Assembly (NCBI GenBank): GCA_947474715.1
Contig: CANJJT010000006.1
Coordinates: forward strand, 12,588 to 76,587
Direction: 5' to 3'
DNA length: 64,000 bases
Origin: Betaproteobacteria bacterium
GTDB lineage: Bacteria; Pseudomonadota; Gammaproteobacteria; Burkholderiales; SG8-39
Below are positions 5,972-64,000 of the stretch, in pieces; the first letter of the stretch is position 1, and the number at the start of each line of letters is the position of its first letter. Under the pieces are notes generated by a model that saw nothing but the letters and a program-made list of their open reading frames with translations, ran no database searches and had not been told where the DNA came from. Position numbers and translations under genes: made by a program.

Positions 5972-6598
5972 ATGTCCGAGCCTGACGCCAAGCCGGCGCC
6001 TGCAACGATTCCACCACCGGCTTCTCCTGCTGCGCCGACTGCCGGTAGCCATGGCGGACGTTCCTGGGAACGCATCGGCCCGCTGCGGCTGCTCATCATC
6101 TTCAGCCAGATCACCCTCGTGGGCTTCGGCGGCGTGTTGCCCTTTGCCTACCGCGAACTGGTCGAGCGCCGGCGGCTGCTCAGCAACGCGGCCTTTTCCG
6201 AGATGTTCGCTTTCGGGCAGGTCATGCCGGGCCCGGCCATCGCCAATTTCGCGCTCACCGTCGGCTATCGCGACAGCGGTGCGCTGGGTGCCGTAGCCGC
6301 AGTCGCGGGCATCGTCACGCTGCCCTTCCTGCTGCTGTTGGTGGTGGGCATTTTCTACTTCCGCAATGCCGACCTGCTGCTGGTGCGCCAGGCCCTGCAT
6401 GGCATGGCCGTGGTGACCGGCGGGCTGGTGGTGGCAGTGGCGCTGAAAATGACTCGCGGCATGCACCGGAACAAGCAGGCAATGTTTCTGCTGGTGGGTG
6501 TCTTTCTCAGTTTCGGCCTGATGCGCTGGCCCTTCCTGGCGGTGATCGCGGTGGCCGGTCCGCTGGCCTTCTGGCTGTCCTGGCGGGAGCAGCGCTGA
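5972..6598 (+). CDS. chromate transporter family protein (short CHR, first of a pair)
   Basis: FGGVLPFAYRELVERRRLLS ... GQVMPGP CHR-domain motifs. ATG at 5972 (MSEPDAKP) is preferred over the listed start. Confidence 0.8.
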   Translation: MSEPDAKPAPATIPPPASPAAPTAGSHGGRSWERIGPLRLLIIFSQITLVGFGGVLPFAYRELVERRRLLSNAAFSEMFAFGQVMPGPAIANFALTVGYRDSGALGAVAAVAGIVTLPFLLLLVVGIFYFRNADLLLVRQALHGMAVVTGGLVVAVALKMTRGMHRNKQAMFLLVGVFLSFGLMRWPFLAVIAVAGPLAFWLSWREQR

Positions 6599-7152
6599 TG
6601 GTGGAGGGCGGCACCGGTTTCGATACGCCCATCTGGCTGCTGCTGGTGCAGCTGATGATCCTGTCGTTTGCCGCAGTGGGTGGCGGGCTGGCGATGCTGA
6701 TGCCGGAGCTGCAGCGCTTCATCGTCATCGAGCACGGCTGGATGACCAATGCCGATTTCATTGCCGCCTTCACCCTGGGGCAGGCGGCGCCCGGGCCGAA
6801 CTTCCTCTACGTGGCGCTGGTGGGCTACCACCTGGCCGGTTTCAAGGGTGCACTGATGGCGGCCATCGCCGTGGTGGTGCCGCCGGGCCTGCTGGTCTAC
6901 CTGGTGCTGCGGTTTGGTGAATCGCGCGTGAGCGCGCGCTTCCAGCGCGCCATGCGCGAAGGCCTGGCGCCGGTGGCAGCCGGGCTGATGATGTCCTTCG
7001 GCTGGGTGATGTGCTCACAGGTGGACACCAACTGGCGCGCGGCGGCGGTGACATTGATTGTCGTGGCAGTGAACTTTCGCACCCGCCTCAATCCGGTGTG
7101 GCTGGTGCTGGCCGGGGCGCTGCTGGGGATGGCGGGAATCGTTTCTGACTGA
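6598..7152 (+). CDS. chromate transporter family protein (short CHR, second of a pair)
   Basis: ATGA start/stop overlap with the upstream CHR gene. LGQAAPGPN motif and multiple TM helices. Confidence 0.8.
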   Translation: MVEGGTGFDTPIWLLLVQLMILSFAAVGGGLAMLMPELQRFIVIEHGWMTNADFIAAFTLGQAAPGPNFLYVALVGYHLAGFKGALMAAIAVVVPPGLLVYLVLRFGESRVSARFQRAMREGLAPVAAGLMMSFGWVMCSQVDTNWRAAAVTLIVVAVNFRTRLNPVWLVLAGALLGMAGIVSD

Positions 7153-7207
7153 TCATAATCAGTCAGCCCAGCCAATGATAACGGCGCCTCTGTCACGAAT
7201 ATGATCA
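7149..7207 (+). repeat. 59-bp conserved intergenic element, copy 1 (TGATCA-terminated)
   Basis: CTGATCATAAT-N14-CAATG-N3-ACGG-N16-ATGATCA. The same block order and spacing recur at 28706 and 39661. The TGA at 7150-7152 is the stop codon of the upstream CHR gene. Confidence 0.75.
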
Positions 7208-7263
7208 CATGATCTGGTGTGGCCAATGTGATCGCCGTGGCCAATGTGGCTGGGGTGTTGCGC

Positions 7264-8636
<1,373 letters not shown>

Positions 8637-28300: not shown

Positions 28301-28684
28301 ATGACCCCGACGATGACGACGGCGTACTGGTGTGTGCTGGCGGCGGCGATGCTGCCCTATGCAGCGGTGGGGCTGGCCAAGGCCAGGCCGGGATTCGACA
28401 ACCACGCGCCGCGCGAATGGCTGGCCCGCCTGTCCGGATGGCGCCAGCGCGCCCACTGGGCGCATCAGAACAGTTTTGAGGCATTCCCTGCGTTTGCTGC
28501 CGCGGTGATCATTGCGCACCTGGCGCAGGCGCCACAGGGCCGCATAGACCTGCTGGCCGTGGTGTTCGTGGTGGCCCGCGGGGCCTACATCGCTGCCTAT
28601 GTGGCCGATGCGGCGATCCTGCGCTCACTGGTCTGGAGCGTGGGCCTGCTGTCGGTGGTGGGGCTGTTCGTGGTCTCCGCCTGA
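28301..28684 (+). CDS. MAPEG family membrane protein
   Basis: MTTAYWCVLAAAMLPY...HQNSFEAFPAFAAAVIIAH pattern. The start is ambiguous (28295, 28301, 28313). 28301 has the best SD spacing. Confidence 0.7.
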   Translation: MTPTMTTAYWCVLAAAMLPYAAVGLAKARPGFDNHAPREWLARLSGWRQRAHWAHQNSFEAFPAFAAAVIIAHLAQAPQGRIDLLAVVFVVARGAYIAAYVADAAILRSLVWSVGLLSVVGLFVVSA

Positions 28685-28705: not shown

Positions 28706-28764
28706 GTGATTACAATTTCTTTGTTGATTCAATGTCCACGGCGCCTGCCATCCGGAAATGATCA
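28706..28764 (+). repeat. 59-bp conserved intergenic element, copy 2
   Basis: GTGATTACAAT-N14-CAATG-N3-ACGG-N16-ATGATCA with the same spacing as copies 1 and 3. Its right-hand TCA (28762-28764) is the glnE stop codon on the minus strand. Confidence 0.7.
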
Positions 28765-31572
28765 TTTCTTTCCGAGAACGGCCTGCCACAGGGACCGCGT
28801 TGCGCGCACCGCCGCGGCCACCTCGGACCGCGCTACCCGGGCGTAGCGCGCCCCGGCCAGGCGCAGCGAGTGCTGCAGCCTGCGAAACACCCGATAGGCT
28901 TCCTGCACTTCGGTCGCCAGCGCCGCATCGATGAGGCCCAGGCTGGCTGCGTGGCCGAGCAGCGCGATGTTGCCGTCGTTGCGGGCGAGCACGCCATGGG
29001 CATGGGCGTGGGCCAGCACCAGGTATTGCACGATGAACTCGATGTCGACCATGCCGCCGCGGTCATGCTTGATGTCGAATTCCTTGCTGGTATTGGGATG
29101 GCCTTCGGACATGGTCTTGCGCATCTTGCGCACTTCATCGGCCAGCGCCTGCGGATCGCGCCGGGTGCGCAGGATGGACTGGCGCTCTGCTTCGAAGGCG
29201 GCGCCGGTGGCGGCCTCGCCGGCGCAGAAGCGCGCGCGCGTAAGCGCCTGGTGTTCCCAAACCCAGGCCGACTCGCGCTGGTAGCGGCGAAAGGCGGTGA
29301 GTGAACTCACCATGAGGCCGCTGGCGCCATCCGGACGCAGCCGCAGGTCGGTCTCGAACAGCACGCCGGCCGCGGTGCGGCTGGTGAGCCAGGTGTTGAG
29401 CCGCTGGGCGAGGCGGGCATAGGCTTCCGCCGTGCCATTGCCATTGCTGTCGGCGTCGCCGTGTTCCCCGCCATCGTCATACAGAAACACGATGTCGAGG
29501 TCGGAGGCGTAGCCCAGTTCCTTGCCGCCCAGCTTGCCGTAACCGATGATGGCGAAGTGCGGCTTCTCGGGCAGCGTCGGCGTGCGTGTGCGCAGGCCGC
29601 TCCAGCACAACTCCAGCGTGACCTGCAGCACCAGGTCGGCCAGATCCGAAAGGTGATCAGCCAGGCTCTCCACGCTGAGTGCGCCGGCCAGGTCCTGCAG
29701 CAGCAGGTGAAACAACTGGGTGTGGTGGGTTTCGCGCAAGGCATCCATCTGCCTTTCCATGTCGCCTTCGGCTTCCATGAGCGTGCGGCGCAGTTCCTGG
29801 CCGACCTGGTGCCAGTCCGGCTTGGCCATCAGCAGGTTGGCGTCCAGCAGTTCGTCGAGCAGCACCGGATGGCGGTTGAGGAATTCGCCAGCCCAGGGTG
29901 AGGCCGAGACCAGCCCGGTCAGCCGTTCCAGAGCCACCGGATGTTCGTCCAGCAGCGCCAGATAGGCGGCGCGCCGGCTGATGGTTTCGATCAGGTCGAG
30001 GGCGCGCGCCAGGGTGGCATCGGGGCCGGGGCGCTTGGCCGACTGTTCCAGCAGCCGCGGCACCAGGGCATCGACGCGCTCGCGGCTGGATTCGGGCAGT
30101 GACTGATAGCGGCTGCCGGTGCGTATGCCTGCCAGTCGCGCTGCCACCGCGTCCGGCTCCGCATAGCCCAGCTCGCTCAGGCGGCGCAGCCGGGAAGCGG
30201 CAGCATCCTCCGCAGTGTCGGTCCACAGCGAGGCGAGCGCATGGCGCTGTTGAGCCTGGGTGGAGAAAATGCGCTCGAAGCGCAGGGCGACGGCCGTGCG
30301 ATGCATGGCCAGTGTCTTCTGGAAGGTGCCAGTGCTGCGGTATCCCATGGATTGGGCCAGCAGCTTTGCATCGACCGCGGCCTTCGGCAGCTCGTGAGTC
30401 TGGGCGTCATCCAGATACTGGATGCGATGCTCGACCCGCCTGAGGAAGTCGTAAGCGGCGCACAGCACCTGTACGTCCTCCGCCGTGAGCAGACGCTTTC
30501 GAGCGAGCAGATCCAGCACCTGCAGGGTAGGACGCGTCTGCAGTTCCGTTTCCCGCCCGCCACGGATCAGCTGGAACACCTGGGCGATGAATTCGATTTC
30601 GCGGATGCCGCCCGGGCCGAGCTTGACGTTATTGGCCAGTTCCCGCCGCGCCACCTCTTCGCGTATCTGTGCGTGCAGTTCGCGCATGGCCCCGAAGGCG
30701 CCGTAGTCGAAATACTTGCGGAACACGAAGGGCCGCACCGTGGCGGCCAGCGCCTGCTGCGCGGTGTTGCTGCCGGTCAGCGGCCTCGCCTTGATCCAGG
30801 CATAGCGTTCCCACTCGCGGCCCTGGCTCACCAGATACTGCTCCAGGGCGTCGTAGCTCATGGCCAGCGGACCGGGGTCACCCCAGGGGCGCAGGCGCAT
30901 GTCGACGCGAAATACATAGCCTTCATCGGTGGGCTGGTTGATCAGGCCAATGAGGCGTTTGCCGGCAGCCGAGAAGAACTCATGGTTGCTCACGCAGCGC
31001 GTGCCTTCACCCCGGGTTTCACCTTCCTCGGGATAGACGAAGATGAGATCGATGTCGGAGGAGACGTTGAGTTCGCCGCCGCCCAGCTTGCCCATGCCGA
31101 CCACCACCAGTTCCTGGCGTTCGCCCGCTTCCGAGCACGGCATGCCCAGCGTCTGCTGCAGCTCCTCCATGACGCAGGCGAGAGCGCGTTCGATGGCGAC
31201 TTCGGCCAGCAGGGTCATGGTCGAGCAGACTTCTCCCAGGCTGGCGCAGCCAGCCAGGTCGCGCTCCATCAGCGTGAGCAGTACCCGCTTGCGCAGGCGC
31301 CGCAGGCTGACGCCCAGGTCCGCACCCTCCTCGGCATCCAGGCAGGCGTGCATGGCAACGCGGGTCCACCCGATATCCAGTTGCGGCGCAATGTCCTCAA
31401 GCAGTGCCGGATGGGCCAACACCAGACTGCAGGCATAGCGCGAATGCCTGCGCGACAGTTCCAATGCGGCAGACATCTTCAACGCGGACGCCTTCGAGGG
31501 GCGGCGGGCAGCCGCCGGCCGGGCAATGGGTGCACCGGAATGACTGTCATCGGATGAGCGGGAACGTGACAT
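28762..31572 (-). CDS. glnE: bifunctional glutamine synthetase adenylyltransferase/adenylyl-removing enzyme
   Basis: Two nucleotidyltransferase modules (SSDIDLIFVYPEEGE and ASDLDIVFLYDDGGE), about 936 aa. Confidence 0.9.
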   Translation of the reverse strand: MSRSRSSDDSHSGAPIARPAAARRPSKASALKMSAALELSRRHSRYACSLVLAHPALLEDIAPQLDIGWTRVAMHACLDAEEGADLGVSLRRLRKRVLLTLMERDLAGCASLGEVCSTMTLLAEVAIERALACVMEELQQTLGMPCSEAGERQELVVVGMGKLGGGELNVSSDIDLIFVYPEEGETRGEGTRCVSNHEFFSAAGKRLIGLINQPTDEGYVFRVDMRLRPWGDPGPLAMSYDALEQYLVSQGREWERYAWIKARPLTGSNTAQQALAATVRPFVFRKYFDYGAFGAMRELHAQIREEVARRELANNVKLGPGGIREIEFIAQVFQLIRGGRETELQTRPTLQVLDLLARKRLLTAEDVQVLCAAYDFLRRVEHRIQYLDDAQTHELPKAAVDAKLLAQSMGYRSTGTFQKTLAMHRTAVALRFERIFSTQAQQRHALASLWTDTAEDAAASRLRRLSELGYAEPDAVAARLAGIRTGSRYQSLPESSRERVDALVPRLLEQSAKRPGPDATLARALDLIETISRRAAYLALLDEHPVALERLTGLVSASPWAGEFLNRHPVLLDELLDANLLMAKPDWHQVGQELRRTLMEAEGDMERQMDALRETHHTQLFHLLLQDLAGALSVESLADHLSDLADLVLQVTLELCWSGLRTRTPTLPEKPHFAIIGYGKLGGKELGYASDLDIVFLYDDGGEHGDADSNGNGTAEAYARLAQRLNTWLTSRTAAGVLFETDLRLRPDGASGLMVSSLTAFRRYQRESAWVWEHQALTRARFCAGEAATGAAFEAERQSILRTRRDPQALADEVRKMRKTMSEGHPNTSKEFDIKHDRGGMVDIEFIVQYLVLAHAHAHGVLARNDGNIALLGHAASLGLIDAALATEVQEAYRVFRRLQHSLRLAGARYARVARSEVAAAVRATRSLWQAVLGKK

Positions 31573-38428: not shown

Positions 38429-39664
38429 GTGGCCACGTCCTCTACTGCTGCAAACTCTCCGCTGCTCAATAAACGTATCCTGCTCGGTCTCACCGGCGGA
38501 GTCGCTGCCTACAAGGCTGCCGAACTGACGCGTCTGTTCATCAAGGCCGGCGCCGACGTGCGCGTGGTGATGACCGAGGCCGCGACGCGCTTCATCGGGC
38601 CGGTCACCATGCAAGCCCTGTCCGGGCAGCCAGTCCATACCGATCTGTGGGATGCGCGCATCGCCGACAACATGGCGCACATCGAACTCTCGCGCGACCG
38701 CGACCTGATGCTGATTGCCCCGGCCAGCGCCGATTTCCTCGGCAAGCTGGCCAATGGCCTGGCCGACGATCTGCTCTCGACCTTGTGCATCGCGCGGCGC
38801 TGTCCGCTGGCGGTGGCGCCCGCCATGAACGTGGAGATGTGGTCCAGTCCGGCGACCCGGCGCAACGTGGCCCTGCTGCAGGGGGATGGCGTTCAGGTCC
38901 TGGGCCCGGCGGCAGGTGAGCAGGCCTGCGGCGAGACCGGCATGGGACGCATGCTCGAGCCCGAGGATCTGTACGCGAAGGTGCTGGCATTGCTCGGCAG
39001 TCAGGGCGCGCAGAGCCGGCCGCTCAAGGGGCGCAAGGTGCTGATCACGGCGGGGCCGACCTTCGAACCCATTGATCCGGTGCGCGGCATCACCAATACC
39101 AGTTCTGGGAAGATGGGCTATGCCGTGGCACAGGCGGCGGCCAGTGCCGGCGCCGAAGTGACGCTGGTGTCGGGCCATACCGCGCTGGCGGTGCCCCCGG
39201 GTGTCAGTCGCATCGACGTGAAAACGGCGCAGGACATGTATAACGCGGTGCTGCCGCGGGCGAAGAAGAACGACATCTTCATTGCGGTGGCCGCGGTTGC
39301 CGACTATCACGTGGTTGATGCCAAGGATCAGAAGATTAAGCGTGGCCACGGCAACATGACCATCAGGCTTGCCCCGAACCCGGACATCCTGGCCGCCGTT
39401 GCGAAACTGGCAAAGCCCCCGTTCTGCGTGGGCTTTGCCGCCGAGACCGAGAACCTGCGCGAGTATGCCCAGGCCAAGCGCAAGAAAAAGGGCATCCCGC
39501 TGCTGGCCGCCAACCTCGCCCAGCACGCCTTCGGACGTGACGACAATGCGCTGACGCTTTTCGATGACCAGGGCGAGCATGTCCTGCCGCGCACCTCCAA
39601 GGTGGAACTGGCGCACCAACTGATCACGCATATTGCCGGGATGCTTGAGCGTCGAGGTCGCTGA
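38429..39664 (+). CDS. coaBC: bifunctional phosphopantothenoylcysteine decarboxylase / phosphopantothenate--cysteine ligase
   Basis: ILLGLTGGVAAYKAAEL flavoprotein N-domain and ITAGPTFEPIDPVRGITNTSSGKMG CoaB motif. Confidence 0.9.
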   Translation: MATSSTAANSPLLNKRILLGLTGGVAAYKAAELTRLFIKAGADVRVVMTEAATRFIGPVTMQALSGQPVHTDLWDARIADNMAHIELSRDRDLMLIAPASADFLGKLANGLADDLLSTLCIARRCPLAVAPAMNVEMWSSPATRRNVALLQGDGVQVLGPAAGEQACGETGMGRMLEPEDLYAKVLALLGSQGAQSRPLKGRKVLITAGPTFEPIDPVRGITNTSSGKMGYAVAQAAASAGAEVTLVSGHTALAVPPGVSRIDVKTAQDMYNAVLPRAKKNDIFIAVAAVADYHVVDAKDQKIKRGHGNMTIRLAPNPDILAAVAKLAKPPFCVGFAAETENLREYAQAKRKKKGIPLLAANLAQHAFGRDDNALTLFDDQGEHVLPRTSKVELAHQLITHIAGMLERRGR

Positions 39665-39719
39665 TCATAATCAGTTTCACTGTCCAATGAAGACGGATAT
39701 GTGCTCGAAAAAATGATCA
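39661..39719 (+). repeat. 59-bp conserved intergenic element, copy 3
   Basis: CTGATCATAAT-N14-CAATG-N3-ACGG-N16-ATGATCA. The TGA at 39662-39664 is the coaBC stop codon, and the element ends 37 nt before the dut ATG. Confidence 0.75.
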
Positions 39720-39755
39720 TATTCTTATTTCACCATGGACGTTGGCAGACCAGCC

Positions 39756-42085: not shown

Positions 42086-44383
42086 TCAGGCTTCGGGGGT
42101 AACTTCCTTGACCTTCTCCTCTTCGAACCTGAGGACGACCTTGCCGGCGGCATCCGCATCCACCGTCACCTTGCCCCCGGAGGCAAGGCGGCCGAACAGC
42201 AACTCGTCGGCCAGCGCCCGGCGTATGGTGTCCTGGATCAGGCGTGACATCGGGCGCGCACCCATGAGTGGGTCGAAACCTGCCTTGGACAGGTGCTCGC
42301 GCAGCGCATCGGTGAAGACCGCATCCACCTTCTTCTCGTGCAGCTGGGCTTCCAGTTGCATGAGGAACTTGTCGACTACACGGACGATGACGTCATGGTC
42401 GAGCGAGCTGAAGGATATGGTGGCATCCAGCCGGTTGCGGAACTCCGGGGAGAACAGCCGCTTGATCTCGGCCATTTCATCGCCCATCGCCCGGCTGTTG
42501 GTGAAGCCCATGACGGTCTTGTTCAGCGCCTCCGCTCCGGCATTGGTGGTCATGACGATGATGACGTTGCGGAAGTCGGCCTTGCGGCCGTTGTTGTCGG
42601 TGAGCGTGCCGTGGTCCATCACCTGCAGCAGGATGTTGTAGATGTCCGAGTGCGCCTTCTCGATCTCGTCGAGCAGCAGCACGGCATAGGGCTTCTTGGA
42701 GATGGCCTCGGTAAGCAGTCCACCCTGGTCGAAGCCGACATAGCCGGGCGGGGCGCCGATCAGGCGGGACACGGTGTGTCGTTCCATGTACTCGGACATG
42801 TCGAAGCGGTGCAGCTCTATGCCCATGCAATAGGCGAGCTGCCGGGCCACTTCGGTCTTGCCGACGCCGGTCGGGCCGGAAAACAGGAAGGCGCCGATGG
42901 GCTTTTGCGGGTTGCCCAGGCCCGAGCGTGCGGTGCGGATGGCCGACACCAGCGCGTCGATTGCCTTGTCCTGGCCGAATACCACGGCTTTGAGGTCGCG
43001 GTCGAGGTTCTTGAGCGCGTTGCGATCGTTCTGGGACACCGAGGCTGGCGGGATGCGGGCGATCTTGGCGATGATTTCCTCGATCTCCGCCTTGCCGATG
43101 AGCTTCTTCTGCCGTGACTTGGGCAGGATCTTCTGCGCCGCGCCGGCTTCGTCTATCACGTCAATGGCCTTGTCCGGGAGGTGGCGGTCGGTGATGTAGC
43201 GCGCCGAGAGTTCTGCTGCGGTTGACAGGGCATTGGCGCTGTACTTCACGCCATGGTGCAGCTCGAAGCGCGATTTCAGGCCGCGCAGGATCTGCACGGT
43301 CTCGTCTATGGTGGGCTCCGGCACGTCGATCTTCTGGAAGCGCCGCGACAGCGCATGGTCCTTCTCGAAAATGCCCCGGTACTCGTTGTAGGTGGTTGCG
43401 CCGATGCACTTGAGGGCGCCCGAGGAGAGCGCCGGCTTCAGCAAGTTGGATGCGTCGAGCGTTCCACCCGAGGCGGCACCCGCGCCGATGATGGTATGGA
43501 TCTCGTCGATGAACAGGATGGCATTGGGATTGTCGACCAGCTGCTTGAGCACGGCCTTGAGGCGTTGCTCGAAATCGCCGCGGTACTTGGTGCCGGCCAG
43601 CAATGCGCCCATGTCCAGGGAATGGACCTGGCAATTGGCCAGGATCTCCGGCACCTGGCCATCCACGATGCGCTTGGCCAGGCCTTCGGCAATGGCGGTC
43701 TTGCCCACGCCGGCTTCGCCCACCAGCAACGGGTTGTTCTTGCGCCGTCGGCACAGTGTCTGGATCACGCGCTCCAGCTCATGCTCGCGGCCGATCAGCG
43801 GATCGATCTTCCCGGCCAGGGCCTGGGTGTTGAGGTTCTGGGTGTAGGTCTCCAGAGCGCCGCTGCCCTGCTGTTCCTCGGCGCCGGCTTCCTGCTCCTG
43901 CCCGGCGCCAGCCTTGGCATCCTTGCCCTGGGGGGACTTGGTGATGCCGTGGGAGATGAAATTGACCACATCCAGCCGCGTCACACCCTGCTGGTGCAGG
44001 AAGTAGACGGCATGGGAATCCTTCTCGCCGAATATCGCGACCAGCACGTTGGATCCGGTCACTTCCTTCTTGCCGGAGGACTGAACGTGGAGGATGGCGC
44101 GCTGGATGACGCGCTGGAACCCGAGCGTCGGCTGGGTGTCGATCTCCTCGCTGCCGGCCACGGTCGGGGTGTGGGCGGTGATGAAGTCCGAGAGAGCCTT
44201 GCGCAGCCCATCGATGTTGGCGGCGCAGGCGCGCAAGGCCTCCACGGCGGTGGGATTGTCCAGCAGTGCGAGCAGCAGGTGCTCCACAGTGATGAACTCG
44301 TGCCGCTTCTGGCGCGCCTCCACGAAAGCCATGTGCAGGCTGACTTCCAGTTCCTGGGCGATCACGTTTCCTCCATTAGACAT
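42086..44383 (-). CDS. clpA: ATP-dependent Clp protease ATP-binding subunit ClpA
   Basis: Two AAA+ modules ([13 protein letters not shown] and [15 protein letters not shown]) and a Clp N-domain. The start may be a few codons downstream (..[14 protein letters not shown]). Confidence 0.95.
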
Positions 44384-44670
44384 TGCAGGGGATGTTGGTG
44401 CTTGTGTGCGTAGGCGATGACCTGGTCCCGCTTGGTAGTGGCGATGTCGCGGGGGTAGATCCCGCAGACACCCATTCCCTCGCGGTGCACCTTGAGCATG
44501 ACCTGGGTCGCCTGTTCGCGGCTCATGGCAAAAAACTGCTGCAGGACAATGATCACGAATTCCATCGGGGTGTAATCATCATTCAGCAGCATCACCTTGA
44601 AAAGTGGCGGTGGCTTGAGCCTGGCTTTCTGGGCTTCAAGTATTGTGGCATCTCGAGAACGGGTAGCCAT
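44362..44670 (-). CDS. clpS: ATP-dependent Clp protease adaptor ClpS
   Basis: [19 protein letters not shown] core motif, immediately upstream of clpA. Confidence 0.95.
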
Positions 44671-45111
44671 ATTGTCAAAAACTGTCCTGCAAAGCGTACC
44701 CCGGGTGCCGTGGAGCGGTCACTGCCACTGCCTGTTACACCCGGTTGGACAACAATCATGCGTTGTAATTCCCGGGGAGCGGGCATCGCATGGCCCACCT
44801 AGCTGCATCTGCGCAATGCAAATGCGGTTCGACTTCTACTGTACTGATTGTTACTGGCAAACACAATGTCCCTGGTGGATCAGTCCCGCTTCAATTCCCG
44901 GCCTTTCAGGCAGGGTATCGCGACTTGAGAAAGGCCGATATTTCACTTGACAGAATGAAAAAAGCCACATTGACGCGTTTTTACAATGGGCGTATAAGGC
45001 TGTCCTGTGTTTGTCCTCCAAGCCCTATAGGGGATGGAAAACCCTGCGGCCACGTGAGGAACAGACATGGTTCCGGGCTTTTCCGGTTATTTCGATTCGA
45101 GGATGGGTTCT

Positions 45112-45315
45112 ATGCCAACAGGTACGGTGAAGTGGTTCAATGATGCAAAGGGGTATGGCTTCATCACCCCGGATGATGGTGGTGAAGATTTGTTCGCGCA
45201 TTTTTCGGCTATCCAGATGAGTGGTTTCAAGACGTTGAAGGAAGGCCAGAAGGTCCAGTTTGAAGTGACCCAGGGTCCCAAGGGCAAGCAGGCCTCGAAT
45301 ATTCAGGCCCCATGA
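45112..45315 (+). CDS. cspD: cold-shock domain protein (CspD-like by position)
   Basis: [32 protein letters not shown] motifs. ATG at 45112 follows GAGGA. Divergent from clpS as in E. coli cspD. Confidence 0.9.
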
Positions 45316-45328
45316 CGATATTCTCCAG

Positions 45329-45352
45329 ACGGGCGTGATGCGCCCGTTTTCT
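45329..45352 (+). terminator. rho-independent terminator of the csp gene
   Basis: acgggcg-tgatg-cgcccgt hairpin followed by tttt, 14 nt after the stop. Confidence 0.7.
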
Positions 45353-45381
45353 TTGCAGGCTCTGTGGCATTCGGGCTCAGC

Positions 45382-45410
45382 AAAAAAGGCCGCGCATGCG
45401 GCCTTTTTTT
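45382..45410. terminator. second, bidirectional-looking terminator hairpin
   Basis: aaaaaa-ggccgc-gcat-gcggcc-ttttttt, with an A-tract before and a T-tract after a GC stem. Confidence 0.7.
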
Positions 45411-45735
45411 CTTGGTGATGACGCAATTGTCCTGCTGTCCATATGTCTGAAATATTTCGATGGAATGGCGTGGAGTCTGCCAGTGAGCAATGGCCGTAGC
45501 CCTAGAAGTTGGAGGGACTGACGGCCATATTTGCCCATTCGGAGCTAATCGGTTGTTCCTGAAACGGAAAATCCCTTGCTCGATTGCAATCATCACTTTC
45601 CTTGATTAGAATGATGCGTCCCAAAATTTTGCCGGGTGTGTCAACCGGCCTTGAGCAGGGGCGTTAGGAGGAGGGACTGGTCCGAAAAGCCGGTCGTTCC
45701 GAAAATTTCGCATCATCAAAGAGAGAGGAAAAACC

Positions 45736-45894
45736 ATGCAAAAGTTCATCGCTATCGTTCTGGCTTCCATGTTCGCCGCTGTCTCCTTCAGCGCTGTTGC
45801 CGCTGATGCCAAGAAGGACGATAAGAAGGCTGAAGCCAAGAAGGACGACAAGAAGGCTGATGCCAAGAAGGCTGATGCCAAGAAGGCTAATTAA
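45736..45894 (+). CDS. small secreted Lys/Ala/Asp-rich repeat peptide (52 aa), not in the ORF track
   Basis: SD agagagga, then ATG. Translation is MQKFIAIVLASMFAAVSFSAVAA-DAKKDDKKAEAKKDDKKADAKKADAKKAN*. It has a signal peptide with an AVA-A site and a strong terminator directly downstream. The listed antisense ORF 45606..45881 is the mirror artefact. Confidence 0.65.
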   Translation: MQKFIAIVLASMFAAVSFSAVAADAKKDDKKAEAKKDDKKADAKKADAKKAN

Positions 45895-45920
45895 TTCGTC
45901 TTCTGACGAATCGCTGAAAA

Positions 45921-45947
45921 GGCAGGGGTGTTCCCCCTGCCTTTTTT
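45921..45947 (+). terminator. rho-independent terminator of the small ORF
   Basis: ggcagggg-tgttc-cccctgcc followed by tttttt. Confidence 0.8.
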
Positions 45948-46001
45948 CATTTCTGGGCCTTGATCAATGCACTACCCTGATCCCGACATCGCCAGCCTGG
46001 G

Positions 46002-61080: not shown

Positions 61081-61116
61081 GTGGTGGCTGTCAAGGCCAT
61101 TATTGTCGTTTTAGAT

Positions 61117-62145
61117 ATGATGGCCAGACGGCTAATAAATCATTCGCTTGATTGTGATCATCGTCATTGGGTCGATGGGGTGGCCAGGGGAGTGATTTCG
61201 CTGGCCTTGTTGCTGGCGCCCGTGATGGCGGCAGCCCAGGATGCCTTCCCGGCACGCCAGGTGCGCCTGGTGGTGCCGGTCGAGGCCGGTGGTGCCACAG
61301 ACGTCCAGGCGCGCATGTTTGCTGCCGAGTGGGCGAAAGGTCTGGGTGGCCAGCCTGTCATCATCGACAACCGGCCGGGTGCCGGCGGGGCCATCGGCGC
61401 GGACGTGGTGGCGAAATCCCGGCCCGATGCCCATACCGTCTGTTTCTGCTCCACCAGCCAGCTGGTGCTGCTGCCCCTCACCGAAAAGCAGTATCCCTTC
61501 GTGCCATTGCGTGACCTGCAGCCGGTGACGCCGGTCTATCTCGCCGATGGCACCATCGCCGTGCGGGTGGACATGGGCGTGAAGTCGCTTGCCGATTTCG
61601 TCGCCCTGGCCAAGGCCAACCCGGGCAGATTCACTTACGGATCGACCGGGACAGGGGGCATCATCCATCTCACCGGCGCGCTGATAGGCAACCTGACGGG
61701 CATCAACATCGTCCATGTGCCTTACAAGGGGGAGCAGCCCGCGGCCAATGACCTGATGACCGGCCGCATCGACATGCTGCCGCTGTCGGCCCTGCTGGCT
61801 GAGCGTCTGGCCAGAAGTGGCAAGGTGCGGGTGCTGGCGGTGCGCGGTGTGACGCGCAATCCACTGCTGCCTGATGTGCCCACCATGGCCGAGTCAGGCT
61901 TCCCTGGTGCCGAGACCCCCAATCATGGCGGCCTGCTGGTGGCCGCCGGGTCACCCATGCCAGCTGTCGAAAAGCTTTACAGCGCTGCCGCGGGCGTACT
62001 CAACCAGGCAGACATCAAGGATCGCTTCGTGCAGGCTGGCCAGCGTGCTTTCCTGCTGAAGCCGGACGCCTATGCGGATTTCCTGCGCCAGGAGACCGAA
62101 AAGTGGCGCAAGGTCGTGCGCAGCCTTCCTCCGCTCAGGGAATAG
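61117..62145 (+). CDS. Bug family (TctC-like) substrate-binding protein
   Basis: FPARQVRLVVPVEAGGATD...NRPGAGGAIG...VHVPYKGEQPA motifs. The start is uncertain (61081 GTG, 61117 or 61120 ATG). Confidence 0.85.
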   Translation: MMARRLINHSLDCDHRHWVDGVARGVISLALLLAPVMAAAQDAFPARQVRLVVPVEAGGATDVQARMFAAEWAKGLGGQPVIIDNRPGAGGAIGADVVAKSRPDAHTVCFCSTSQLVLLPLTEKQYPFVPLRDLQPVTPVYLADGTIAVRVDMGVKSLADFVALAKANPGRFTYGSTGTGGIIHLTGALIGNLTGINIVHVPYKGEQPAANDLMTGRIDMLPLSALLAERLARSGKVRVLAVRGVTRNPLLPDVPTMAESGFPGAETPNHGGLLVAAGSPMPAVEKLYSAAAGVLNQADIKDRFVQAGQRAFLLKPDAYADFLRQETEKWRKVVRSLPPLRE

Positions 62146-63491: not shown

Positions 63492-64000
63492 TCATTCCTC
63501 CGGCTTGACGCCAGCCTTCTTGATCACGCCCTCCCACTTGGCGTAGTCGGCGATATAGGCCGACTTCAGTTCCGCAGGTGTCAGCGGTGGTGCAGGCACC
63601 GCGCCATCGGCTGCCATCTTGTCCTTGATGTCGGGGACTGCAATGACCTGCACCAGTTCGCGATTGAGTGCGGTCACGATGGCCGATGGCATCTGGGCGT
63701 GCGCATACAGCATGTAGGTGTTGGCCACGTCGTAACCGGGGATGCCCGATTCGGCAATGGTGGGAATGTCGGGAAACTCCGGCACGCGCTGCGGACGCGT
63801 GGTCGCGAGGATCCTGGCCTTGCCGGCGCGCACCGACTGGATGCCGGAAACCGATGCCAGTGCCACATTCAGCCGGCCGGCCACCAGGTCGAGGTAGACC
63901 TGCGCATTGCCCTTGTAGGGGACATGGATCATGTCCAGGTTGGCGCCCAGTTCGATCAGTTCCAACCCGAGGTGGATCACCGAGCCCACGCCGTTGGAGC
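63492..64000 (-). CDS. Bug family (TctC-like) substrate-binding protein, C-terminal part (gene continues beyond the right window edge)
   Basis: IHVPYKGNAQVYLDLVAGR and downstream Bug motifs. The frame is open to nt 64000. Confidence 0.85.
   Translation of the reverse strand, partial: SNGVGSVIHLGLELIELGANLDMIHVPYKGNAQVYLDLVAGRLNVALASVSGIQSVRAGKARILATTRPQRVPEFPDIPTIAESGIPGYDVANTYMLYAHAQMPSAIVTALNRELVQVIAVPDIKDKMAADGAVPAPPLTPAELKSAYIADYAKWEGVIKKAGVKPEE

Follow-up and report, generated by a model that had tools for sequence, protein, structure and literature searches.

The functions of dispersed extragenic elements such as the repetitive extragenic palindromic (REP) sequence and the bacterial interspersed mosaic element (BIME) of Enterobacteria and Pseudomonas remain a matter of debate, although the elements themselves were recognized decades ago. 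Such elements bind proteins of the host and are absent from divergent promoter regions; their sequences differ from species to species, whereas a location is sometimes shared. REP and BIME are short and lie scattered at the ends of genes, often where two genes converge (PMC1525189). Here, we describe an element of similar location in a 64,000-nucleotide (nt) stretch of contig CANJJT010000006.1 (assembly GCA_947474715.1, positions 12,588 to 76,587 of the forward strand) from a betaproteobacterium of the GTDB lineage SG8-39; the whole stretch is referred to as the window. The element has a two-box architecture with a fixed spacing, is conserved at the same gene junctions across species, and is located at gene ends.

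By location, REP/BIME is the closest described system. The present element is likewise extragenic, lies at gene ends and between convergent genes, and is absent from divergent spacers, as judged from seven junctions. However, REP is a GC-rich imperfect palindromic hairpin conserved over its whole length, whereas the present element is AT-rich, has no consistent hairpin and includes a free interior of 42 nt. REP/BIME also go together with a RAYT (tnpA-REP) gene in the same genome; the roughly 83 kb available here contain no transposase. By architecture, the closest systems are paired phased operators, such as two NrdR boxes about three helical turns apart or paired high-affinity H-NS sites, in which short boxes are set at a whole-turn distance with free sequence between them. 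Such operators serve the promoters of specific regulons and are usually palindromic, whereas the boxes described here are direct repeats five turns apart, lie at the 3′ ends of housekeeping genes unrelated to one another and occur about once per 14 kb. A third comparison is with the integron attC site, the so-called 59-base element, which shares with the present element a length of about 60 nt, a position that directly follows a stop codon or overlaps it, and short conserved motifs at the ends with variable sequence between them. The attC site has inverted ends (RYYYAAC ... GTTRRRY) that form a hairpin, and flanks mobile cassettes near an integrase; in contrast, the TGATNAYAAT ends of the present element are direct, show no conserved pairing and stand among syntenic housekeeping genes. 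A preliminary description of the window, made from its letters alone, could not assign the element to any repeat family, and indeed no known repeat or RNA family fits it. Literature searches returned nothing relevant for the five commonest boxes, nor for phased direct repeats at convergent genes.

Architecture of the element

Three 59-nt stretches on the + strand, beginning at positions 7149, 28706 and 39661 (copies 1 to 3, or c1 to c3), align without gaps, just as the preliminary description had reported. Copies 1 and 3 are identical at 38 of 59 positions, which agrees with the hand count given there, and the corresponding numbers are 35 for copies 1 and 2 and 31 for copies 2 and 3. All three are AT-rich patches in high-GC DNA (37–48% GC as compared with 64% for the window). 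Four conserved blocks with identical spacers had been proposed. The first spacer, from sTGATyAyAAT to CAATG, turned out to be 13 nt rather than 14, and the pattern containing N14 matches nothing. The corrected 19-base skeleton, TGAT-N19-CAATG-N3-ACGG-N17-TGATCA, occurs at exactly three sites in the window, all of them known copies, as compared with 0.01 expected from the shuffled-sequence control, and no extra site appears in the window even when up to three mismatches are allowed. The central part alone, CAATG-N3-ACGG, occurs three times on the two strands of the window, every time within a copy. The observation of three copies is confirmed, far beyond what chance would give. The accompanying argument that block-wise conservation with fixed spacing disfavors a recent duplication is also supported. 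The two central blocks, CAATG and ACGG, are nevertheless kept only among the copies of this genome and are absent from the same junctions elsewhere, so that the set of four conserved blocks has to be revised.

The conserved unit, as it emerges from the contig and the related genomes together, is a box of about 10 nt, [T/A/C]GAT-N-A-Y-A-W-T, which is repeated directly 52 nt downstream. The spacing is 52 nt in 15 of the 16 elements and 53 nt in the remaining one (coaBC/dut of the related locus L005), and the 42-nt interior between the boxes is freely variable. The consensus of the box is TGAT-H-A-Y-A-A-T, and a short A-rich stretch stands before the second box. When the 15 elements spaced at 52 nt are combined into a profile, information is confined to columns 1–10 (T G A T H A Y A A T) and 47–62 (C.AAWW followed by [TC]GAT[CA]A[TC]AWT), with the interior near zero; G2, A3, T4, A6, A8, G54 and A55 are invariant. 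The termini, which had been taken to be inverted like those of a MITE (a miniature transposable element with inverted repeats), are thus one box in direct repeat. They seem inverted in copies 1 and 3 because the boxes there contain the palindrome TGATCA, and the terminal pairing is lost in relatives with boxes containing TGATTA or GATAAT. For the same element, two TGATCA hexamers 52 nt apart had been described; these are present in copies 1 and 3, and in copy 2 the left hexamer is TGATTA.

A position-matrix scan of 1.3 Mb detected 10 box pairs at 52 nt and one at 53 nt, with essentially none at other distances. Two of these pairs, both at the MAPEG/glnE junction (L005, 222–283; L007, 273–334), had not contributed to the training of the matrix. 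To remove circularity, a held-out test was performed with a matrix made only from the six boxes of the preliminary description and with the source copies masked. In 166 kb of clade DNA, the held-out matrix gave 44 pairs 11–150 nt apart, 10 of which are at 52 nt and two at 53 nt, every other distance being represented by two pairs at most, and in 1.18 Mb from more distant relatives it gave no pair at 52 nt. High-scoring boxes in the clade loci are almost never single, nearly all of them having a partner at 52 nt. Since 52 bp corresponds to 4.95–5.0 helical turns, both boxes would be exposed on one side of the double helix. It is highly probable that this conserved bipartite architecture represents a real, selected element.

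Conservation at the same junctions

Relatives were sampled through neighboring proteins 70–86% identical to those of the window. The nearest GTDB genomes, which are bins of uncultured freshwater Burkholderiales or Betaproteobacteria, have a CoaBC only about 80% identical. Four junctions are occupied in more than one species. The chrA/BON junction has the element in this genome and in L086 and L087 (BON protein 82 and 72% identical, respectively), with the same 52-nt spacing and the same orientation. The MAPEG/glnE junction is occupied here and in L005 and L007, and the coaBC/dut junction here and in L004, L005, L006 and L007. The miaA/tctC junction is occupied here and, in the same orientation, in L088 (MiaA 84% identical). 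The order of the genes around the elements (chrA, BON, glnE, coaBC, dut, miaA, tctC) is conserved across species. In the coaBC/dut spacers of L004–L007, the left box is TGAT[TA]ACAA[AT] and the right box is [TCA]GAT[AC]ATA[AT]T, and nothing recognizable is left between them. A comparison of CoaBC places the window organism as the outgroup to (L004, L006, (L005, L007)), which means that the element at the shared junctions predates the clade.

The interiors have a different history. At the same junction, interiors from different species are identical at 12.75 of 42 positions, virtually as for unrelated elements (12.9 of 42). Their divergence, with the 42-nt length kept, indicates purifying selection on the boxes and on the length of the spacer.

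Outside the clade the element was not encountered. No two-box pair is present in the coaBC/dut spacers of the more distant relatives L008–L019; from L008 onward, CoaBC is at most 78% identical to that of clade members. The strict 19-base skeleton has no match in 185,579 GTDB species genomes and a single match in JGI metagenomes, which is within a coding region and was therefore taken as chance. These scans with the strict skeleton say little about the two-box family, because the pattern is over-fitted to the center blocks of this genome. The block pattern with up to seven mismatches and an nhmmer profile of five copies, both run against 1.3 Mb of relatives, recovered the copies of this genome only. 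This distribution suggests that the element is specific to one group of uncultured freshwater Burkholderiales. As far as the sequences tell, it would be a dispersed extragenic element of a putative protein-binding kind, ancient within its clade, for which there is no fitting described family.

Location at gene ends

The window also stands within a 122-kb metagenome contig, k141_3664357 of ENA ERZ27277814. The contig was extended beyond the window on both sides, the right extension being 100% identical over an 11.9-kb overlap. This genome has six copies, c1 to c6, in about 82.8 kb, or one per 14 kb, which by extrapolation would correspond to a few hundred copies genome-wide. Copies c4, c5 and c6 surfaced when the pattern was relaxed; they keep both ends, with the CAATG and ACGG blocks lost or partial.

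Copy c1 (7150–7211, + strand) consists of a left box TGATCATAAT at 7150–7159 and a right box TGATCACATG at 7202–7211, so that the 59-mer is extended by 4 nt. It lies between the convergent chrA and BON-domain genes: the TGA at 7150–7152, within the left box, is the stop codon of the second CHR gene (6598–7152), and the BON-domain gene stops at 7264. Copy c2 (28707–28768, + strand; left box TGATTACAAT at 28707–28716, right box TGATCATTTC at 28759–28768) nearly fills the spacer between the convergent MAPEG gene (stop at 28682–28684) and glnE (28762–31572), whose reverse-strand stop, the TCA at 28762–28764, lies within the right box. Copy c3 (39662–39723, + strand) has the same left box as c1, TGATCATAAT, at 39662–39671 and a right box TGATCATATT at 39714–39723. 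The left box holds the stop codon of coaBC (38429–39664; TGA at 39662–39664), and the start of dut is 11–32 nt downstream of the element, at 39735 or 39756. That a terminal TGA or TCA of the element serves as a flanking stop codon, as had been stated, is thus true of all three copies, but it does not extend to the family, since stop codons in relatives are 0–28 nt from the boxes.

Copy c4 lies on the + strand past the right end of the window, at 8569–8630 of L084 (equivalent to about 64740–64801 of the window), in the miaA/tctC junction, where the stop codon of miaA is 32 nt away and the start of tctC 250 nt. Copy c5 (502–563, − strand; left box TGATAACAAT at 563–554, right box TGATATTAAT at 511–502; nhmmer E = 1.7e-9) begins 15 nt past the stop codon of a minus-strand haem-binding (PF04187) gene at 579–1481, and its opposite neighbor is convergent. 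Copy c6 (61099–61160, − strand; left box TGATCACAAT at 61160–61151, right box CGACAATAAT at 61108–61099) is located between two tandem + strand tctC genes, 18 nt past the stop of the first (61080). The second tctC gene is called from a GTG at 61081, immediately after this stop, and its N-terminus is signal peptide-like only from about 61180. The call of its start is probably too early, and the first 100 nt or so, which hold c6, would then be intergenic. A further locus is found in L089, where an element fills the 75-nt spacer between the convergent UDG and tctC genes.

Taken together, the elements represent seven independent junctions, four between convergent and three between tandem genes; divergent genes are not represented. 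Each element has a stop codon no more than about 36 nt away. Within tandem spacers, it is close to the stop of the upstream gene and not to the start of the downstream gene, and several convergent spacers contain little beyond the element. With respect to the flanking genes, orientation is mixed: four of the six copies are co-oriented with the upstream gene, while c4, its counterpart in L088 and c6 are antisense to both neighbors.

An intrinsic (Rho-independent) terminator was considered as an identity of the element and rejected, because the GC-rich hairpin and T run are not found at c1–c3. No terminator-like site is present within 250 nt of these three copies, and terminator-like sites across the window are no commoner than in shuffled sequences. 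The MAPEG/glnE element of L007 is the sole element with a terminator hairpin in its interior. In L091, a locus from outside the clade, a bidirectional terminator composed of an A-run, a CCGCGGAC/GTCCGCGG stem and a T-run lies at 6017–6076 between convergent genes for miaA and an H+-pyrophosphatase; clade members have two-box elements beside miaA, where L091 has this hairpin.

The interiors of the six copies (7160–7201, 28717–28758, 39672–39713, 512–553 and 61109–61150 of the window and 8579–8620 of L084) are more alike than the comparison between species would predict. They are identical at 17.2 of 42 positions (41%), as compared with about 30% between species at the same junction (permutation p < 2e-4). 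Sharing is mosaic: c2 is like c4, with the common stretch TTGATT(C)AAT(G/A)TCCACG, c3 is like c5, with the common stretch AATGAAGA..GAT.T, and c1 and c2 have ACGGCGCCT in common. The CAATG and ACGG blocks are part of this genome-specific layer of the interior. The layer suggests either exchange between dispersed copies or an extra, third contact that is specific to the lineage.

A putative DNA-bound complex

What kind of molecule would require such a geometry? A direct repeat of 10 bp, an exact spacing of 52 bp and a free interior point to double-stranded DNA recognized by a protein on one face of the helix. A protein-binding architecture, one of the two readings offered in the preliminary description, is the one left standing after the tests reported here, and we infer that the constraint acts on the DNA through a protein. 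In the mechanism that we propose, a putative clade-specific, sequence-specific DNA-binding protein would bind both boxes together, with two subunits or two dimers bridging or wrapping the 42-bp spacer, the length of which would matter and the sequence of which would not. Because the sites lie in short spacers at the 3′ ends of genes, the bound complex would most likely mark or insulate the ends of transcription units. A role at transcription-unit boundaries is also suggested by the combination of gene-end location, density, absence from divergent spacers and likeness to REP/BIME. Possible roles include a roadblock or boundary for RNA polymerase, the handling of supercoiling and an anchor for a chromosome-organizing protein. 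We hold tentatively, and at slightly less than an even chance, that the element acts in the DNA by way of a putative protein bound to it, and that gene ends are in some manner marked by this complex. A specific function as a boundary or terminator is speculative and, in our judgment, unlikely.

Several points weigh against this proposal. For a single protein, a pair of direct repeats at a distance of 52 bp is an uncommon arrangement. Divergent spacers are missing from a sample of only seven junctions, which by our own estimate would happen by chance with P ~0.13. The DNA examined amounts to no more than about 82.8 kb from this genome plus about 100 kb from close relatives. In L004 the MAPEG/glnE junction is empty, the two stop codons being 9 nt apart (380–410), while the coaBC/dut element is kept; the element is dispensable there. 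Finally, the likeness of interiors within this genome is not predicted by a pure model in which only the length of the spacer counts, which hints at a further layer of constraint or exchange.

Alternative explanations

Each box could instead be a −10 element of the sigma-70 type (N-A-Y-A-A-T following TGAT) that drives short or antisense transcripts, with the right box of c3 as the promoter of dut. Positions 5–10 of the box match TATAAT at the key A−11 and T−7, the right box at coaBC/dut precedes the ATG of dut by 28–45 nt in five species, and the −10 element of the rnpB promoter in the window is TACAAT. That rnpB hexamer, however, is preceded by GCCT and not by TGAT, and at other positions conservation in the boxes departs from the promoter pattern: T−12 is unconserved whereas G-A-T at −15 to −13 is invariant, and the TG is one position out of the extended −10 register. 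There is no −35-like hexamer 16–18 nt upstream of either box, columns 34–39 of the interior being free of information, and a promoter scan gave one weak site, on the other strand only, with no + strand promoter at c1–c3. Nor does the genomic setting suit promoters, as four of the seven junctions are convergent and have nothing downstream to transcribe, boxes are never single upstream of genes, and in L009, where dut follows coaBC after 12 nt, there is no promoter. We therefore regard the promoter explanation as improbable.

A small mobile or recombining unit, either a decayed MITE or a cassette of 52 nt with boxes on which a nicking enzyme or recombinase acts, would account for the fixed length, and cleavage or crossover at the boxes would spread interiors between loci. 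The element is like a MITE in being small, intergenic and present in several copies, and in the apparent TGATCAT...ATGATCA ends of copies 1 and 3. The mosaic interiors, more alike within this genome than between species at the same junction, and the presence/absence difference at MAPEG/glnE are in line with this idea, and some boxes read TTGATA or TTGAT, presumably like the cleavage motifs of rolling-circle elements and of IS200/IS605. Unlike a MITE, however, the element has direct-repeat ends, shows no target-site duplication and is stable at shared junctions. The same junctions are occupied across species with fully diverged interiors, so that the boxes do not show the decay expected of neutral target duplications or of transposon ends. 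Apart from the TGATCA palindrome, terminal inverted repeats are absent, and there are no subterminal hairpins, no target duplication beyond the boxes in the 20-nt flanks of 15 elements, and no transposase nearby in about 83 kb of this genome. At the empty site of L004 the entire unit appears to have been cleanly lost, and parsimony on the CoaBC comparison favors loss there over gain elsewhere. Mobility thus has a small probability as the explanation of the element.

Could the boxes be weak sites of a known global regulator, either Fur, with half a box each, or an H-NS-like silencer? TGATAAT or GATAAT is one half-site of the Fur box, and the literature matches for box words are mainly Fur-box papers. 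The boxes also resemble the published 10-mer bound by H-NS with high affinity (tCGATAAATT-like), and the AT-rich copies stand out in the high-GC window as expected from H-NS-like attraction. The Fur box, however, is a 19-bp palindrome (7-1-7) at iron promoters, whereas the present element has no second half (the information content of columns 11–17 is at most 0.5) and lies at the 3′ ends of genes unrelated to iron. A probable Fur box, TGATAATAGTTCTCATT, does exist in L087 (13590–13640), about 35 nt upstream of hemP-tonB-exbBD, and it is a lone, unpaired match to the matrix, a natural control indicating that Fur-type sites match singly. As for H-NS, the invariant G, A and T, together with the tolerance of C at positions 5 and 7, speak for a readout of specific bases and against a general attraction to AT. 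A known global regulator is accordingly a doubtful candidate, to which we would give little weight. Other sites were compared as well. An FNR/CRP-like palindrome, TGAT-N4-ATCA, is present at the left box of c1, c3, c5 and c6 only, being absent from c2, c4 and other species, and was rejected. By-eye comparison with sites for IHF, DnaA (DnaA box), LexA, ArcA and PhoB, and with dif, boxA, Ter and rolling-circle nick sites, gave partial resemblance only, and these were also set aside.

The other reading of the preliminary description was a structured RNA, and more generally the element might act in RNA, as an element of the 3′-untranslated region or of RNA processing, as a small structured RNA or as a mini-open reading frame of nine codons. 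The prevalent co-orientation with the upstream gene would suit an RNA element, c1 and c3 fold somewhat better than shuffled sequences (z = −2.4 and −1.7), and in copies 1, 2, 3 and c5 an ATG is followed in one frame by nine codons and a TGA (ATG-N3-ACG...TGA). These signs do not hold across the family. Over 14 elements, the fold z-scores range from −4.7 to +1.6 with a mean of about −0.6, seven being −0.3 or higher, and the strongest fold is the ordinary terminator hairpin inside the L007 MAPEG/glnE element. Pairing in the seven-pair terminal stem amounts to 69% over 14 elements without a single compensatory change, a level that 68 of 500 shuffles reach as well. Rfam gave nine hits at E ≤ 10, none of which overlaps an element, and RNase P alone passes the gathering threshold. 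As neither covariation nor a consistent fold nor an Rfam match was found, the structured-RNA reading was not borne out. In addition, the three elements that are antisense to both flanking genes do not fit an action in the transcript, and an exact nucleotide count in a direct repeat whose interior is free suits DNA geometry better. The mini-open reading frame (MITAPLSRI, MSTAPAIRK, MKTDMCSKK or MKIDVIAQI) was rejected, as its ATG is present in only four of 15 elements and there is no Shine–Dalgarno sequence. An action in RNA therefore has a very slim chance of being correct.

A chance or compositional likeness among AT-rich spacers, for which one could invoke the AT enrichment of intergenic DNA in high-GC genomes and the window-wide excess of TGATCA, is refuted by the skeleton matches, by the held-out peak at exactly 52 nt and by the four junctions shared with other species.

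Other features of the window

Some observations concern the surroundings of the elements. Upstream of c1, the chromate transporter is encoded by two half-size CHR genes (5972–7152, + strand) with a stop/start overlap at 6598, and the split pair is also found in L087. Downstream of c1 and before the BON stop (7219–7250, + strand), GTGGCCAATGTG occurs twice, 16 nt apart; the same 60 nt contain two further TGATC motifs, and CCAATG is also present within c1. The hexamer TGATCA occurs 35 times in the window as compared with 16.8 expected from dinucleotide shuffles, and only six of the occurrences are in elements; the surplus may come from codon usage (xTG-ATC-Axx). ARAGORN calls a tRNA-Arg (GCG) at 63754–63831 (+ strand), antisense within a tctC gene (63492–64490, − strand), and this call is probably a false positive.

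A region at 44000–46000 has a low GC content (0.545 as compared with about 0.64). It includes a sub-threshold match to the cspA thermoregulator RF01766 at 44918–45353 (+ strand; 41.8 bits against a gathering score of 78). Downstream of this match, at 45916–45946 (+ strand), is the only strong intrinsic terminator in the window, with a 13-pair stem.

Implications

The element is a case of geometry under selection: the exact five-turn distance is kept at the same junctions while the interior turns over. It also shows how a palindromic hexamer within a direct repeat can mimic the inverted ends of a transposon. A 62-mer with mutable boxes and spacing provides a defined bait for a DNA-binding factor.

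A more far-reaching possibility, which we think quite unlikely, is that the element is the cis part of an undescribed clade-specific system that defines transcription-unit boundaries, with copy correction of the interiors. Since intrinsic terminators in the window are no commoner than in shuffled sequences, such a system, if it exists, might replace hairpin terminators with a factor-dependent, sequence-addressed mode of termination or insulation, and the similarity of interiors within the genome would then reflect active copy correction between sites. If the putative factor marks operon ends, the element would bear on how the limits of transcription units are set in high-GC bacteria with few hairpin terminators.

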